DNA of 64,000 nucleotides, taken from sequence record OR352947.1. The stretch is one strand, 5' to 3'. The translations under genes were made by a program, and so were the position numbers. This document shows, one piece after another, positions 7,489-63,885 of the stretch (within the stretch, counting starts at the first letter, position 1; each line of letters begins with the position of its first letter). The DNA comes from Escherichia phage AV117. Below the pieces are notes generated by a model. That model was given only the letters and a program-made list of their open reading frames with translations. It made no database searches and had not been told where the DNA came from.

Positions 7489-7518
7489 ATTATACTCCAA
7501 ATGGGACCGAAGTCCCAT
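7489..7518 (-). promoter_or_regulatory. intercistronic GGGAC-UUCG-GUCCC stem-loop followed by TATAAT
   Basis: minus-strand AUGGGAC-UUCG-GUCCCAU hairpin (7501..7518) then TATAAT (7489..7494) between regA and gene 43. Confidence 0.45.
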
Positions 7519-7522
7519 TGCT

Positions 7523-14128: not shown

Positions 14129-14153
14129 AAAAAAAGGAACTCCGAAGAGTTCC
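14129..14153 (-). terminator. rho-independent terminator
   Basis: minus-strand GGAACUC-UUCG-GAGUUCC hairpin followed by U7. Confidence 0.6.
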
Positions 14154-14329
14154 TATCCACATAGTACACCGTACAGAGGCTCATTTGAACTTTTAAATCG
14201 AATGGGCTTGTATGTAATAGTTCCTTCTGCTTTAGCTTTATCATGAGACTCTTTAAAACGTCTCATCATTTCTACTTTAGAGGAACGAATTTTATTATAA
14301 TCTATTTCAGAAGTCGGGATGTTCGTCAT
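14153..14329 (-). CDS. hypothetical small protein (58 aa)
   Basis: ATG at 14329, MTNIPTSEIDYNKIRSSKVEMMRRFKESHDKAKAEG...; ends at terminator hairpin; below ORF-track cutoff. Confidence 0.35.
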   Translation of the reverse strand: MTNIPTSEIDYNKIRSSKVEMMRRFKESHDKAKAEGTITYKPIRFKSSNEPLYGVLCG

Positions 14330-16544: not shown

Positions 16545-16596
16545 TTTATTATCCAATGAGAGCATTATACTCTGCTCTCAAGAGTTTGTGCATTAT
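16545..16596 (-). repeat. 52-bp promoter-containing repeat, copy A
   Basis: tttattatccaa-gagagcattatactctgctctcaagagtttgt-attatt; 3 mismatches to copy at 46810..46861. Confidence 0.8.
16564..16592 (-). promoter_or_regulatory. early-type promoter (TATAAT -10, weak -35)
   Basis: minus-strand TGCACA-N17-TATAAT inside repeat copy A. Confidence 0.4.
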
Positions 16597-22663: not shown

Positions 22664-22764
22664 TCATATCGTTTACTGTAGGTTCATCATAACACGTTTC
22701 TTCGTCGTTGTAAACTGTTTCGACGTCTGGCTCGACAGTTTCCCATCGAGCCGAATACCATGGT

Positions 22765-28156: not shown

Positions 28157-29158
28157 TTATTTCAGTAAAGTTACTTCAGAGATTTCCTCCCAACCATCTT
28201 TATCAGTTGAAATAAAATCTGCTACATAAAGAGCCGTACGTAATGATACATTGCGAAGACGAGATACGTTGGCCTTCATCCAGGACAATGCTTTATACGT
28301 TTCTGCATCTGTCAGACCACGTTTCTGCATCATGTCAGTAGATAATATTACATCTTCAACTCGAACCATAATCTCTTCATTAGAGTGTACTCCGAGGTCG
28401 AGATACACTGAACGAGATACTAAAGCTTGAAGGTGTGGGGCAAGTTTCGAACCGCGTTCTAACTCTTTATCGATATCAACGTTTGTAATGAAAACGATAG
28501 TACCTTCAAACTCAAATTCTTTATCAATACCCTTATCATCGAGATAAGATGACGCAGTGCTCCAGCAAACTTTGCGTTTATCTCCAGTATCTAATGCTGC
28601 TTTAAGAAGGTTCAAGATGTCCATATCCGAGAATACGTCAACGTCGTCGATTAAGAGAACGCTGTCTGCATCACGGTTGAGCCAAAGTTGTTCGTAAAGG
28701 CCAATACCAGAGATTTTACCATTAATGCTTTTGTATTTGATGAAACCATTATCATTAGCATTATTAAGTGCTTTATCCAGAGAATACGTCTTACCAATAC
28801 CAGCTGCACCTGAAATAATGAGTGAACGAATTTTGCCATCGATAATGCCATTCGTCATCATGTTCATTACTTTAAAGCGTTTGTTGATACGAGTTTTCAT
28901 ATCTTCAGTGCTTTCAACAACTGCAACTGGTGATGTCTCAACTCCTTCCATTACGATGTCTGATTTGAAGACCCATACTCCACGTTCAGAACCATCAATC
29001 ATAACGAAAATTTTACCATCACCTAAGTGGGAACATTCAGGATTAAGCTTTGCCGGGAACCATGTCTTTGTGGCAACATAAGAACCAGAGATTTCGTTAT
29101 TACGATAGATACCTTTTTTGATTTGAACGTTGAACATTTTATTCTCCAATTTACTCAT
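28157..29158 (-). CDS. AAA+/P-loop ATPase
   Basis: 333 aa; Walker A GAAGIGKT, Walker B VLLIDDVD. Confidence 0.65.
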   Translation of the reverse strand: MSKLENKMFNVQIKKGIYRNNEISGSYVATKTWFPAKLNPECSHLGDGKIFVMIDGSERGVWVFKSDIVMEGVETSPVAVVESTEDMKTRINKRFKVMNMMTNGIIDGKIRSLIISGAAGIGKTYSLDKALNNANDNGFIKYKSINGKISGIGLYEQLWLNRDADSVLLIDDVDVFSDMDILNLLKAALDTGDKRKVCWSTASSYLDDKGIDKEFEFEGTIVFITNVDIDKELERGSKLAPHLQALVSRSVYLDLGVHSNEEIMVRVEDVILSTDMMQKRGLTDAETYKALSWMKANVSRLRNVSLRTALYVADFISTDKDGWEEISEVTLLK

Positions 29159-29175: not shown

Positions 29176-29204
29176 ATAATAACATATCCTAAAAGCATGT
29201 ACAC
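29176..29204 (-). promoter_or_regulatory. early-type promoter
   Basis: minus-strand GTGTAC-N17-TATTAT upstream of the ATPase gene. Confidence 0.45.
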
Positions 29205-29235
29205 TACTTTTTTAAAAATATTTTAACCCCCTAAA

Positions 29236-29251
29236 GGGACCCGAAGGTCCC
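29236..29251 (-). repeat. GGGACC-UUCG-GGUCCC stem-loop (copy of 47735..47750 element)
   Basis: cccccctaaagggacccgaaggtcccc shared with 47726..47751; lies 3' of upstream gene and 5' of a promoter. Confidence 0.6.
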
Positions 29252-29256
29252 CACAT

Positions 29257-29520
29257 TTACTTATCGCACTTAGCAACATAATTAGGCATATCACAGAATA
29301 CGGAGCGAGTAACTACTCGGCCCTTTGACCATGCTTCAGTTGCTTGTCCGGCTGTGCTATTAATATAGCTTGATCTAATGTTCTCAATACCCTGAGAATG
29401 TGATGCATTTACAGAACCATTAGAAGTCCCAGAAGACTGGTTACTACCAGCTGCACCCGTGGTAGCACCAACAGAGAATGCCATCATTACTGCGAATAAA
29501 CCAATTACTAATTTTTTCAT
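29257..29520 (-). CDS. hypothetical secreted protein
   Basis: 87 aa; N-terminal signal-like MKKLVIGLFAVMMAFSVGA; Ser/Gly/Asn-rich. Confidence 0.5.
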   Translation of the reverse strand: MKKLVIGLFAVMMAFSVGATTGAAGSNQSSGTSNGSVNASHSQGIENIRSSYINSTAGQATEAWSKGRVVTRSVFCDMPNYVAKCDK

Positions 29521-29551
29521 ATTTACCTCAAGTTAATGGTTATTTATCTAC

Positions 29552-30541
29552 TTATTTATAGTAAGAATTATGATTTTCGAGATAGACTTGTTCAAGGAAG
29601 TCATCCCAGAAACTCATATCTACTTTTTGTTGCATACCGTTCTTGGCAGCTTGTTCTGACGCATGTTCAACTTGGTCAACGATATCTTCTAGGAATTCTT
29701 GAACAGTTTTAAACGTATGTTTACCAAGCTTAACATCGAGAATAAATGGAGCATCCTGAAGTGGGTAAACCAGGTCGCCTGTTTTGTAAATTTCCAATAA
29801 TTGAAGTCCACCACGACATGCATGACTCAATGCTTTCCAGTCAATACCTTCGTTAGCTTCTGCCTTACGAGCACGTTCACCATAGTTCTCTTCCAGTTTA
29901 ACCAGGATGGCATTGAACTCTTTATTGGTTAACGTGTCTTGGAATTTACGGTCTAACAGATTATAGAATGTTTGCTTACCTGTTTTCTCGTTTTCAGTTT
30001 CAACCCACGAAGCAAATTCACCTACAGGCAGAACATTCTTCATATGTGATAAACGAATTACCGCACCATTATCAAAGTATTGTCCCCATTCATTAGAACG
30101 TTTAAGGGCTTGACGAAGAACAGCCAGTCGAGAACCCTTGACACCGTATTTAGAAGCTTGCTTACGGACATACCCTAAATAAGATTTCATGTTAGTGGTA
30201 TAGAAACGAGACCTGTTATCTTGAATATACTTCCATACATCAGGCAAATCAGATTTAACTACTAAACTTGGTGGAGTGTGAAGCATATCTAATGCGACGG
30301 TTTCACCATCCGCCGCTAATTTAAAGAAATATTTGAGACTATACAACTCATGGTCTACGTCGTCTTTTGTGTTCTTAGAAGATGTGTTATTCGTGTTCTT
30401 GCTCATGTGTTCTTTAACGTTACCGGTCAAGATATCACGAGCGTGAGGGACATAAATTTCTTTAAAATCGACGTCAGATTCAGGAGTAGACGTTCCGTAA
30501 AGGTGGCTACCAAAGTAGCCTTTCATAATTGTTTTCATCAT
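29552..30541 (-). CDS. Pol-beta-superfamily nucleotidyltransferase
   Basis: 329 aa; N-terminal GSHLYGTSTPESDVDF fits G[GS]-x(9-13)-DxD NTase motif; ATGA overlap with upstream membrane-protein gene. Confidence 0.55.
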   Translation of the reverse strand: MMKTIMKGYFGSHLYGTSTPESDVDFKEIYVPHARDILTGNVKEHMSKNTNNTSSKNTKDDVDHELYSLKYFFKLAADGETVALDMLHTPPSLVVKSDLPDVWKYIQDNRSRFYTTNMKSYLGYVRKQASKYGVKGSRLAVLRQALKRSNEWGQYFDNGAVIRLSHMKNVLPVGEFASWVETENEKTGKQTFYNLLDRKFQDTLTNKEFNAILVKLEENYGERARKAEANEGIDWKALSHACRGGLQLLEIYKTGDLVYPLQDAPFILDVKLGKHTFKTVQEFLEDIVDQVEHASEQAAKNGMQQKVDMSFWDDFLEQVYLENHNSYYK

Positions 30542-31732: not shown

Positions 31733-31867
31733 TTTACCATACTCGTTTCAATAAGATTCACTATGCCGTTTACCATGTTATAAGTAAACATCGGATAATT
31801 GTATTGTACTACAACATAAGCGATAAGCAAAAGTTTCATTTTGTTCTCCATTTGTTTTGGTAGGACT

Positions 31868-31897
31868 ACTATAACATAGTCCTACCAAGACGTAAAC
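31868..31897 (-). promoter_or_regulatory. early-type promoter with perfect palindrome
   Basis: GTTTAC-N18-TATAGT; GGTAGGACTA-ctataacat-AGTCCTACC palindrome 31859..31886. Confidence 0.55.
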
Positions 31898-42433: not shown

Positions 42434-42459
42434 AATATTCTCCTCAAGTTGATAGGACT

Positions 42460-42487
42460 ACTATAACATAGCCCTATCAGTTTGTAC
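42460..42487 (-). promoter_or_regulatory. early-type promoter with palindrome
   Basis: GATAGGACTA-ctataacat-AGCCCTATC around -10; variant -35. Confidence 0.45.
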
Positions 42488-43992: not shown

Positions 43993-44020
43993 TGTGGACT
44001 CCATTTAATTTGATAGGACT

Positions 44021-44050
44021 ACTATAACATAGTCCTATCTTGTTGTAAAC
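44021..44050 (-). promoter_or_regulatory. early-type promoter with perfect palindrome
   Basis: GTTTAC-N18-TATAGT; GATAGGACTA-ctataacat-AGTCCTATC identical to cassette at 50742..50769. Confidence 0.55.
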
Positions 44051-46809: not shown

Positions 46810-46861
46810 TTTATTATCCAACGAGAGCATTATACTCTGCTCTCAAGAGTTTGTAAATTAT
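46810..46861 (-). repeat. 52-bp promoter-containing repeat, copy B
   Basis: matches 16545..16596 with 3 mismatches. Confidence 0.8.
46829..46857 (-). promoter_or_regulatory. early-type promoter
   Basis: minus-strand TTTACA-N17-TATAAT inside repeat copy B. Confidence 0.55.
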
Positions 46862-47143: not shown

Positions 47144-47647
47144 TCATTTATTTTTAATTTTGCAAATTTTTTCTGCTTCAACAATTGCAGCGTCAATGAT
47201 GCTTTGTGCAATTTTATTACTAGTTGACCTGGCAATCACACTAAGAACAATTTCTTTTTCTTCACCACCCCAACCCCAAGTCCTTTGTTCGTGGGTACCT
47301 TTAACTACAGCTGAAACTTCAACAGAACGTCCACCATCAGAAGTTTTAACATCTACAACCCAATCACCATCTTTCTCTTCTACCCTTGATTTATCCCAAG
47401 AAATACTAATATATGATTCGCTATCAATAGAAGTCGCCGGGTTTTTCTCTACCGTAAGACCTTCACTTTCCAGCCATTCAATAGTATTTGCGCATAAATC
47501 TGAAGAACACCTAATCGGAAACCGGCAAGATTTTTCACCTTTAGCTGCAGCGTTATACATCTTTTCTAAAATACGCTTTTGCACGTTTTTAAAAATAGTT
47601 TCAGCAGATTCTTCAGATTTTTTATTCAGTTCAGTGTAAAGACTCAT
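47144..47647 (-). CDS. hypothetical protein
   Basis: 167 aa ORF. Confidence 0.5.
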   Translation of the reverse strand: MSLYTELNKKSEESAETIFKNVQKRILEKMYNAAAKGEKSCRFPIRCSSDLCANTIEWLESEGLTVEKNPATSIDSESYISISWDKSRVEEKDGDWVVDVKTSDGGRSVEVSAVVKGTHEQRTWGWGGEEKEIVLSVIARSTSNKIAQSIIDAAIVEAEKICKIKNK

Positions 47648-47674: not shown

Positions 47675-47703
47675 TATAGTAACACATCTAGGGAAGAAGT
47701 AAA
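47675..47703 (-). promoter_or_regulatory. early-type promoter
   Basis: minus-strand GTTTAC-N17-TACTAT. Confidence 0.55.
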
Positions 47704-47734
47704 CAACTTTTTCAGTAAGTTATAGACCCCCTAA

Positions 47735-47750
47735 AGGGACCCGAAGGTCC
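47735..47750 (-). repeat. GGGACC-UUCG-GGUCCC stem-loop (copy of 29236..29251 element)
   Basis: 26-nt ccccctaaagggacccgaaggtcccc identical to 29226..29251. Confidence 0.6.
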
Positions 47751-47757
47751 CCATTCT

Positions 47758-48384
47758 TTACTTACGAGTTTTTGCATACTGAGCAGCGTCAGCAGCCAAA
47801 CGACCTGCCTGACGAAGTTTTTCTTTAATCGCATCGTGAAGTGGTTGAGTATACTTCAAACCTTCGATAGTCAAATAAAGACGATAAAGGTCTGGGGTAT
47901 CAAGGTTGTTGATATGTTGGCCATTGCGAAGAATATTGAATTCACGAACGAGTGAAGATGTATCGGATTCAATATCGCGAACAAGCGAAGATAGTTGTTT
48001 ATATTTTTTTTCCAGGCTAGAAGTATCAAACTTAAGAGCAGGAGCTTTAGGAGTTGCTTTTACTTCCGGCTTAGGCTCAGGTTTTGCTATTGCTTTAGGG
48101 GTCGCAGGTTTAGGAATGGTAGGAGCAGGTTTTACTTTAGGCGAACCCGATTTAGCAGAAACACCACCACTAACAATATCTTTGAATGCTTTAGAAGCTC
48201 TGTAATATTCTTTTTGGCTGGAAGTGTCGATACCGTACATGGCTTGAACGTTTTTGAAAAACTCTGTACTAGTTTTTGTACCAGAAATAGCATCGTAAGC
48301 AGCTTGCCATTTCTCTTTTGTCATACGTATACCGGCTTCGGTGATTACTTCCGTTTCGGCTAAAAATTCATTAAAAGTATACAT
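47758..48384 (-). CDS. internal-protein-like protein with variant CTS and Pro/Lys-rich linker
   Basis: 208 aa; N-terminal MYTFNEFLAETE resembles MKTYxEFIxE CTS; central PKVKPAPTIPKPATPKAIAKPEPKPEVKATPK repeats. Confidence 0.55.
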   Translation of the reverse strand: MYTFNEFLAETEVITEAGIRMTKEKWQAAYDAISGTKTSTEFFKNVQAMYGIDTSSQKEYYRASKAFKDIVSGGVSAKSGSPKVKPAPTIPKPATPKAIAKPEPKPEVKATPKAPALKFDTSSLEKKYKQLSSLVRDIESDTSSLVREFNILRNGQHINNLDTPDLYRLYLTIEGLKYTQPLHDAIKEKLRQAGRLAADAAQYAKTRK

Positions 48385-48428
48385 TGATGGTCCTTAGAAA
48401 GTAGGTTTATTGTTTACTATATTTATAC

Positions 48429-48456
48429 AAAAAAGCCCCAACCTTTCGGAAGGGGC
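48429..48456 (-). terminator. rho-independent terminator
   Basis: minus-strand GCCCC-N12-GGGGC hairpin followed by U6; near-copy of 32360..32388 terminator. Confidence 0.6.
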
Positions 48457-48499
48457 TATATACCTTGTCGGGGTTTCCACCTACTAGGTAAGTGTTTTT

Positions 48500-48657
48500 A
48501 CGAAACGCCGGGATTCGAACCCGGTTATTAAGCAGTTGACGCTACTCAATATTTTTAAAAGGCCATATCTCGACCATATCCGAACGTTCCGTCAAAAACG
48601 CTACTCGGCTTACGGCAAAGATATTTCCTCGAATCGATAATTCTGTGCGCCGTTTCT
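48500..48657 (-). ncRNA. candidate tRNA-like small stable RNA
   Basis: minus-strand CCGGG-UUCGAAU-CCCGG T-arm with adjacent CGUUUCG acceptor strand and distal complementary GAAACG; about 158 nt, too long for a canonical tRNA. Confidence 0.25.
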
Positions 48658-50734: not shown

Positions 50735-50750
50735 TTGATTTGATAGGACT

Positions 50751-50780
50751 ACTATAACATAGTCCTATCGTGTTGTAAAC
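50751..50780 (-). promoter_or_regulatory. early-type promoter with perfect palindrome
   Basis: GTTTAC-N18-TATAGT; cassette identical to 44012..44050. Confidence 0.55.
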
Positions 50781-63848: not shown

Positions 63849-63874
63849 GGGAGCCTTCGGGCTCCCATTTTTGT
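63849..63874 (+). terminator. rho-independent terminator
   Basis: GGGAGCC-UUCG-GGCUCCC hairpin then U-rich tract after gene 8. Confidence 0.6.
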
Positions 63875-63877
63875 ATC

Positions 63878-63885
63878 TATAAATA
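63878..63885 (+). promoter_or_regulatory. late promoter TATAAATA (gene 9)
   Basis: exact octamer 33 nt upstream of gene 9 ATG. Confidence 0.6.

Follow-up and report, generated by a model that had tools for sequence, protein, structure and literature searches.

Two identical UUCG stem-loops between gene ends and early promoters in a Mosigvirus genome resemble PeSL-type spacers

The window analysed here is a 64,000-nucleotide stretch of Escherichia phage AV117 (OR352947.1). The region shares 97-99% identity with many Escherichia phages in Mosigvirus (T4-like genus, RB69/JS09/HX01 group) and, by this identity, the phage is a Mosigvirus. A stem-loop sequence is present in two identical copies, at intergenic sites 18.5 kb apart. 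All neighbouring ORFs are on the minus strand, so the element is read as the reverse complement. Both sites have the same order of parts: a stop codon, 4-5 nt, a 7-bp UUCG hairpin, 31 nt, an early promoter (-35 and -10 boxes with TGn), a GGAG Shine-Dalgarno sequence and an ATG. The distance from the last paired base to the -35 box is exactly 31 nt at both sites and consists of a G-run and 23 nt of AT-rich sequence. The preliminary description had placed a GC-rich UUCG stem-loop between a gene end and an early promoter, which is correct when the element is read on the minus strand.

The site 1 hairpin (29235..29252, minus strand) starts 4 nt after the TAA of ORF87 (29257..29520, minus strand). 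The ORF translates to 87 aa, belongs to phrog_2243 and has an N-terminus that is hydrophobic and signal-peptide-like, as judged by eye from the translation. The late-promoter motif TATAAATA (29553..29560, minus strand) is located 32 nt upstream of the ORF87 start and is annotated as a T4 late promoter in OL960577.1. T4 and AV115-type Mosigviruses lack ORF87 and its late promoter. The inserted segment (29257-29560, minus strand) has TAAAT at both borders. The site is within the nrdC.x block, with the nrdC.11 nucleotidyltransferase gene upstream of ORF87. The early promoter, TGTACA-16-TATTAT with TGn (29176..29203, minus strand), is of the T4 type, is annotated in relatives and drives the next gene, which by homology is the orthologue of T4 nrdC.10 and encodes a P-loop protein (28157..29158, minus strand). 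The true start of this orthologue is probably the ATG at 29137, which follows the GGAG Shine-Dalgarno sequence. The promoter also overlaps a MotA-box-like sequence, ATGCTTTTA (29185-29197, minus strand); therefore, an early and a middle promoter may overlap in front of the nrdC.10 orthologue.

The site 2 hairpin (47735..47752, minus strand) is identical to that of site 1 and starts 5 nt after the TAA of a 208-aa ORF (47758..48384, minus strand; phrog_2280, from the ORF translation). The N-terminus of this protein, MYTFNEFLAE, may resemble the targeting sequence of T4 internal proteins. The TATAAATA motif is found again 35 nt upstream of the ORF (48420..48427, minus strand). A terminator hairpin, AGCCCCUUCC-GAAA-GGUUGGGGCU followed by U6 (48434..48457, minus strand), is also present upstream of the 208-aa gene. 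The early promoter of site 2, TTTACT-16-TACTAT with TGn (47676..47703, minus strand), is of the T4 type and drives an ORF translated to 167 aa (47144..47647, minus strand). Residues 1-92 of this ORF match one PHROG and residues 92-167 another, and its counterpart in HX01 is only 101 aa; the gene looks mosaic. Since TATAAATA is 32-35 nt upstream of both upstream genes, the two hairpins close small late-promoter units that stand among early genes of the same orientation.

Site 2 is just downstream of two tRNA genes. A sequence resembling a tRNA T-arm, CCGGGTTCGAATCCCGG (48507-48523, minus strand), is about 600 nt downstream of these genes. ARAGORN and Rfam made no call for it, and it may be what is left of a tRNA, or else a small stable RNA like those beside the tRNAs of T4.

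The 26-mer CCCCCTAAAGGGACCCGAAGGTCCCC has exactly two occurrences in the window, at 29227-29252 and 47727-47752. The preliminary description had correctly reported the two copies as identical, but its coordinates (29226..29251 and 47726..47751) are each one base too far to the left. The exact identity is one base longer on each side and gives a 28-mer, with copy 1 at 29226..29253 and copy 2 at 47726..47753 (both minus strand), which reads U-GGGGACCUUCGGGUCCCUUUAGGGGG-U in the mRNA sense. No further copies of the 26-mer with three or fewer mismatches are found in the window, and none appeared in 100 dinucleotide-preserving shuffles, so the chance expectation is no repeat at all. The remaining exact repeats of at least 20 nt in the window are all early promoters. 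A larger repeat of about 90 nt was suspected because the two sites are about 78% similar from the hairpin through the -10 region, but this was ruled out, as the similarity is the early-promoter consensus common to about 20 promoters of the window. The segment specific to both sites is the 28-nt hairpin stretch only.

A search of 185,579 bacterial and archaeal species genomes gave no exact match to the 26-mer, and a 36-nt query gave none in 5,426 complete E. coli genomes. Since it is absent from bacterial genomes, the element is not a host REP-like or terminator sequence. When the whole window was searched with Rfam, only two tRNAs passed the gathering score. At the site itself, Rfam hits with E values up to 10 included nothing relevant, the best match being 13 bits against a gathering score of 37.8 bits. 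The exact site-specific patterns were present in only two IMG/VR contigs, both from one metagenome; therefore, orthologues were drawn from GenBank phage records.

In the mRNA sense the hairpin is GGGGACC-UUCG-GGUCCCU, with UUAGGGGG after it. Five of the 7 bp in the stem are G-C, and the folding energy of the hairpin alone is about -12.4 kcal/mol. The loop is UUCG with C-G closure on a Watson-Crick stem in the transcribed strand, which is the form of a C(UUCG)G tetraloop. The tail after the stem is UUUAGGGGG / UUUAGGGGGUU, in which the U-tract is broken after three U (UUU-A-GGGGG). The interrupting GGGGG, at 29227..29231 (minus strand) in site 1, is kept at both sites through all of the stem variants, and a similar G-run is found 3' of the hairpin in Erwinia phage Gravdalen (UUUCGGGC) and Serratia phage 4S (UUUCGGGG). 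Two other possibilities were rejected by inspection: a G-quadruplex, as there are only three G-runs, and a hidden ORF, as the Shine-Dalgarno-like AGGGGG has no start codon 5-12 nt downstream.

The G-run could be part of a translation-coupled switch, in which the 5' arm would be masked by a ribosome at the stop codon, leaving the 3' arm to pair with the G-run (CCC/GGG). With the ribosome absent the UUCG hairpin would form, and read-through would track the translation of the upstream gene. The stop codon 4-5 nt upstream, the retention of the G-run at both sites across the stem variants and its likeness in Gravdalen and phage 4S are consistent with this idea. Folding also indicates that the G-run can pair with the 3' arm at -4 to -9 kcal/mol, although only with the 5' arm removed. 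However, the alternative helix is short and is not supported by covariation, and the spacer beside the G-run is equally conserved, so the conservation of the G-run is not special. The downstream gene also has its own promoter, which leaves regulated read-through with no obvious purpose. Therefore, it is unlikely that a translation-sensitive switch accounts for the G-run, and as an explanation of the whole element it is given very little weight.

The combination of hairpin, UUU, any base and G-run is found at the two Mosigvirus sites through all stem variants, and also in a Winklervirus and a Serratia phage. This module could be a distinct unit and not a decayed terminator, functioning either as a translation-sensitive switch or as a sequence recognised by a phage protein that directs recombination or conversion to these spacers. 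Such a role is considered highly improbable.

Intrinsic terminators are defined by a hairpin and a U-rich tract that comes after it (PMC2988021). A stable GC-rich hairpin is present downstream of the gene at both sites. The U-rich tract directly after the stem is not, and the U-tail score is 1.8-2.5. A hairpin/U-tail discriminant of the classic type gives about -6 to -18 for the window element, and with the same formula the T4 nrdC.11/nrdC.10 orthologue scores +42. The window hairpins at 14154 and 46185 score +24 and +12, the range for other window hairpins is +6 to +24, and T4-group hairpins (the T4 orthologue, the g23/g24 spacer and MN01) score +10 to +43. The low score is a result of the U-tract, which stops at three U with the G-run next and so brings the element below the classic terminator threshold.

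The core hairpin GGGACCTTCGGGTCCCTTT occurs at 120 or more loci in IMG/VR. Among the 121 occurrences sampled, all from viral contigs, 95 have a T-rich tail (at least 5 T in the next 8 bases), and none of the 121 has an NGGG tail like that of the window. As a terminator hairpin, this core sequence is very common in phages.

It is possible to read the element as an efficient, canonical intrinsic (Rho-independent) terminator and the repeat as having no further meaning. The GC-rich hairpin after a stop codon, with three U directly past the stem, fits this reading, as does the T-rich tail of most sampled viral copies. The site 1 hairpin is annotated as a rho-independent terminator by TransTermHP/WebGeSTer in the near-identical genome OL960577.1, and a variant of it is annotated as a terminator by ARNOLD in MK373774.1. 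The same hairpin also ends gene 23 in T4-type phages, and a PeSL (promoter-early stem-loop) hairpin of phage RB49 terminated transcription in a lacZ reporter assay (PMC2839356). Against this, AGGGGG cuts the U-tract after three U, and the discriminant has a negative value. In the HX01-type orthologue the stem is followed by no U, the tail of the window is missing from all of the sampled copies, and a ribosome terminating 4-5 nt upstream would be expected to cover the 5' arm. No usable mapping of 3' ends or terminators for T4-like phages was found in the literature searched. Since the U-tract is not that of an intrinsic terminator, the element is not filed as a canonical terminator, and this reading is unlikely.

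The preliminary description had offered three roles: a terminator, an RNase-protective 3' end of the upstream mRNA and part of a mobile cassette. An efficient terminator would be the weakest of the three, owing to the poor U-tract. The element is probably a leaky terminator or a 3'-end protector. It would be a leaky terminator at best, and stopping 3'-5' exonucleases is the more robust predicted role. T4 mRNAs are degraded by 3'-5' exonucleases, namely RNase II, RNase R and PNPase (PMC3014915), and RegB cleaves GGAG in early mRNAs (PMC1702504). A hairpin that protects the 3' end is plausible given both RegB cutting at GGAG and decay by 3'-5' exonucleases.

The window has other hairpins of this kind. 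A third related hairpin had been described at 7501..7518, and it is real. It spans 7500..7519 (minus strand), has an 8-bp stem, AAUGGGAC-UUCG-GUCCCAUU, and is located between regA and the DNA polymerase gene 43. By its sequence, it is the same kind of hairpin and not a copy of the repeat. A TATAAT-like GTATAAT comes directly after it, in front of the DNA polymerase gene. A UUCG hairpin at 14135..14154 (minus strand, sense), AGGAACUC-UUCG-GAGUUCCU then U7, has the canonical terminator shape. Another, GGGAGCC-UUCG-GGCUCCC at 63849..63866 (plus strand), follows a plus-strand gene, with TATAAATA next at 63878, and its stem is that of the T4 nrdC.11 terminator. All five of the sense-orientation CUUCGG hexamers outside genes form 7-8 bp stems right after a gene end (at 7500, 14135, 29235 and 47735 on the minus strand and at 63849 on the plus strand). 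The sense-orientation hexamers within coding sequence are flanked by two pairs at most.

The window has about 20 early promoters and a strong upstream hairpin at only about three of them; therefore, a promoter cassette can do without the stem-loop. A further composite of this type has a 10-bp hairpin with a GNRA loop, GGCUCGAUGG-GAAA-CUGUCGAGCC (22729-22752, minus strand), which stands 14 nt upstream of a TTTACA...TATGAT promoter (22686-22714, minus strand). Four early promoters form a family (31861-31885, 42449-42472, 44008-44039 and 50738-50769, minus strand) in which the -10 box TATAGT is inside an 8-bp inverted repeat, TAGGACTA...TAGTCCTA (GATAGGACTATGTTATAGTAGTCCTATC). This family resembles the PeSL subclass whose stem-loop overlaps the -10 box. 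Two other early promoters form a 32-nt exact repeat, TTTACAAACTCTTGAGAGCAGAGTATAATGCTCTC (16558-16589 and 46823-46854, minus strand), with TATAAT in the loop of the inverted repeat GAGAGC/GCTCTC.

All of the relatives examined, T4 and a Winklervirus among them, have a hairpin at these positions, and the structure is conserved while the stem changes. Differing stems are found in AV115, WFL6982, Gravdalen, HX01, mar005P1 and NHEP29. In the orthologous nrdC.11/nrdC.10 spacer of T4, AGGGAGCC-UUCG-GGCUCCCU is followed by UUUUUUAUUU, an AT-rich stretch and a GTTTAC...TACTAT promoter. Gravdalen (Winklervirus) has GGGACC-UUCG-GGUCCC-UUUCGGGC and a promoter before its nrdC.10 orthologue and after an unrelated small ORF. 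The site 1 stems of the Mosigviruses AV115 and WFL6982 are AAGGGCC/GGUCCC and GGGCC/GGCCC. The 28-nt sequence of site 1 is also present in several close relatives (SA35RD and other exact 28-nt matches).

The cassette of site 1 is reused beside different genes. The order in the window is nrdC.11, ORF87, hairpin plus early promoter and nrdC.10. In AV115 it is nrdC.11, hairpin plus early promoter, ORF89, a second early promoter and nrdC.10. In both AV115 and WFL6982 the hairpin-promoter cassette comes directly after nrdC.11 and drives a different, 89-aa ORF, so the same cassette is flanked on the left by ORF87 in the window and on the right by ORF89 in AV115. Homology between the window and AV115 runs through nrdC.11 to TATAAAT and resumes at ATGTTATTATAGACCTATCGAAAC into nrdC.10. 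The break between the window and AV115/WFL6982 is inside the shared promoter, ATGTTATTATAGACCTATC. The suggestion that the element belongs to a mobile cassette is directly supported by this pairing of one hairpin-promoter unit with different ORFs and by the swapping of the site 2 hairpin in relatives.

At site 2 the flanks are conserved across relatives and the hairpin is variable, with at least three alternative forms, two of which copy a hairpin found elsewhere in the genome. Most Mosigviruses (mar005P1, JS09 and the LF82 phages) have GGGGAC-UUCG-GUCCCC-UUUAGGGGG. HX01, p000v and PECP20 have this common form with AUUA, which lengthens the stem to 9 bp and leaves zero U after it. CAU_ECP01 (PQ572755.1) has the same stem with the loop inverted, GGGGAC-CGAA-GUCCCC, which from the sequence looks like a palindrome-mediated flip. 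NHEP29-type phages (PQ511150.1) have AAGCCCCUUCC-UAU-GGUUGGGGCUU, a near copy of the terminator upstream of the 208-aa gene. The 208-aa gene of NHEP29 is therefore between two near-identical hairpins, AGCCCCUUCC-GAAA-GGUUGGGGCU upstream and AAGCCCCUUCC-UAU-GGUUGGGGCUU downstream. This arrangement is the one expected to permit excision as a small circle.

The form of the site 2 hairpin in the window is rare. It is present (at least 99% match) in only 5 of 110 records, including ST0 and Ec3-ASingh, and in one IMG/VR contig. The closest relatives over the surrounding 1.1 kb (mar005P1, 98.5%) have the common form. A MAFFT alignment placed the indel variants out of register, and the variants were therefore folded separately. 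Three indels separate the window form from the common one, and along exactly 28 nt the window form is the same as site 1. One short-patch event from site 1 is far more economical than three independent indels, so parsimony favours conversion, and the direction is inferred to be from site 1 to site 2. NHEP29 shows the same process with another donor hairpin. The joining of the cassette to different ORFs and the alternative forms of site 2 also make short-patch recombination the best explanation of the identical copies. With recombination among the spacers, the identity of the copies is a by-product and is not evidence for a sequence-specific function of the 28-mer.

The duplicate could also be neutral and functionless, a by-product of promiscuous recombination in a hyperplastic region. 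Both sites are in regions of gene flux (the nrdC.x block and downstream of tRNA genes), and the hairpin sequence is interchangeable. However, a functionless sequence is not expected to be kept as a hairpin in every relative examined despite the turnover of the stem, nor to have a non-random orientation and position. This explanation is very improbable.

Alternatively, the element could act at the DNA level only, as a hot spot for recombination or cruciform formation and possibly as a target of a phage protein, and the RNA hairpin would be incidental. The swapping of hairpins between sites and the inverted loop of CAU_ECP01 speak for this. Arbiol et al. speculated on a protein that targets GGGG...CCCC and mapped one crossover inside a loop (PMC2839356). 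The five hairpins at gene ends in the window all have UUCG in the sense orientation, however, and so do nearly all orthologues. Since the asymmetry of the loop matters for the stability of RNA and not for a DNA cruciform, this argues against a role in DNA only. The position directly after stop codons is also what an RNA 3'-end element needs, and short homology is enough for T4 recombination (PMC2839356), so a special site is unnecessary. A role in DNA only is quite improbable.

The explanation we favour, and regard as reasonably likely, is that the element is the stem-loop half of a PeSL-type cassette, that it is a leaky terminator and/or an exonuclease block, and that the copies are identical through short-patch recombination. 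In minus-strand mRNA, an extra-stable C(UUCG)G hairpin would form 4-5 nt past the stop codon of a gene with a late promoter and would mark the 3' boundary of the upstream transcription unit. We infer termination or stabilisation by the element from this arrangement. The hairpin may act as a leaky terminator, or it may block 3'-5' exonucleases after read-through RNA is cut downstream, or both. The likely cut site would be the GGAG in the Shine-Dalgarno sequence of the next gene, a RegB target. The AT-rich stretch and the early promoter would then restart transcription for the next gene. The site 2 hairpin would have been overwritten by the sequence of site 1 through short-patch homologous recombination between cassettes, and the same recombination would shuffle the ORFs around the cassettes in related phages.

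The element is an instance of a phage terminator-plus-promoter spacer that has already been described, and the site 1 copy is already annotated in GenBank. The additions made here are minor: ectopic short-patch recombination would explain the identical copies, both copies close late-promoter units, and a G-run replaces the U-tract. The element is of little importance beyond annotation. It does give a clean example from the RB69 group of stem-loop/early-promoter cassettes as interchangeable linkers, and an example of terminator hairpins overwritten by copies from elsewhere in the genome. Should the G-run prove deliberate, the hairpins would count as 3'-end protectors or leaky insulators and not as terminators, with consequences for the placing of operon boundaries in T4-like genomes.

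PeSL cassettes were described in RB49/phi1 by Arbiol et al. 2010 (PMC2839356) and extended to T4/PST and KVP40/nt-1 by Comeau et al. 2014 (PMC4122927). The order of parts is a stop codon, a stem-loop (often GGGG...CCCC), an AT-rich stretch, an early promoter, a Shine-Dalgarno sequence and a start codon (PMC2839356, PMC4122927). The cassettes are found in hyperplastic regions, mediate the insertion, deletion and replacement of ORFs, and recombine into mini-circles (PMC2839356, PMC4122927). The roles of terminator, RNase-protective 3' end and mobile cassette are all published for PeSLs (PMC2839356, PMC4122927), and the hedged interpretation of the preliminary description, which named these three, was essentially right.

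Both sites of the window have the composite order of a PeSL. They also share with PeSLs the G/C stem-loop, the hyperplastic location (the nrdC.x block and near tRNAs), the presence of several copies (two identical hairpins and the 22729-22752/22714 composite) and the association with different ORFs in close relatives. Breakpoints are inside the cassette, as seen between AV115/WFL6982 and the window at site 1 and in NHEP29 at site 2. The T4/PST promoter consensus is TTTACW-N17-TAYWAT with a stem-loop just upstream (PMC4122927), and the window promoters fit it within one base of spacing. There are also differences. Between the window copies only the hairpin is identical and not the whole cassette; the promoter halves show about 70% similarity, the same level as among all early promoters of the window. 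With 18.5 kb between them, the copies are no obvious mini-circle pair. Unlike in PeSLs, most early promoters of the window have no stem-loop.

The T4 nrdC.11/nrdC.10 spacer (NC_000866, 55321-55434) is similar in its position relative to nrdC.10, its C-G-closed UUCG loop, its AT-rich stretch and its promoter, and its hairpin begins 2 nt after the stop codon. It differs in the stem (AGGGAGCC/GGCUCCCU), in the full U-tract (UUUUUUAUUU) and in the absence of ORF87 between nrdC.11 and the hairpin. The hairpin of the gene 23/24 spacer (vB_EcoM_ACG-C40, NC_019399) has 21 bases identical to the element, GGGACCTTCGGGTCCCTTTAG, and is at the 3' end of a late gene. It differs in its U-rich tail, UUGUUUUU (UUUAGUUGUUUUU), and in being followed by a late rather than an early promoter. 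Shared descent and convergence cannot be told apart for a sequence so short and so constrained.

The C(UUCG)G tetraloop hairpins were reportedly first noted in T4 mRNAs, by Tuerk et al. in 1988 in PNAS 85:1364. The GGAC(UUCG)GUCC hairpin is said to be the classic NMR structure of Cheong et al. from 1990. Both papers appear among the references of PMC2811024. Both the third hairpin of the window (7500-7519) and the HX01-type site 2 hairpin contain GGAC(UUCG)GUCC exactly. Compared with the extra-stable C(UUCG)G tetraloops, the window element is a further intercistronic instance in a T4-type phage and is the same in kind.
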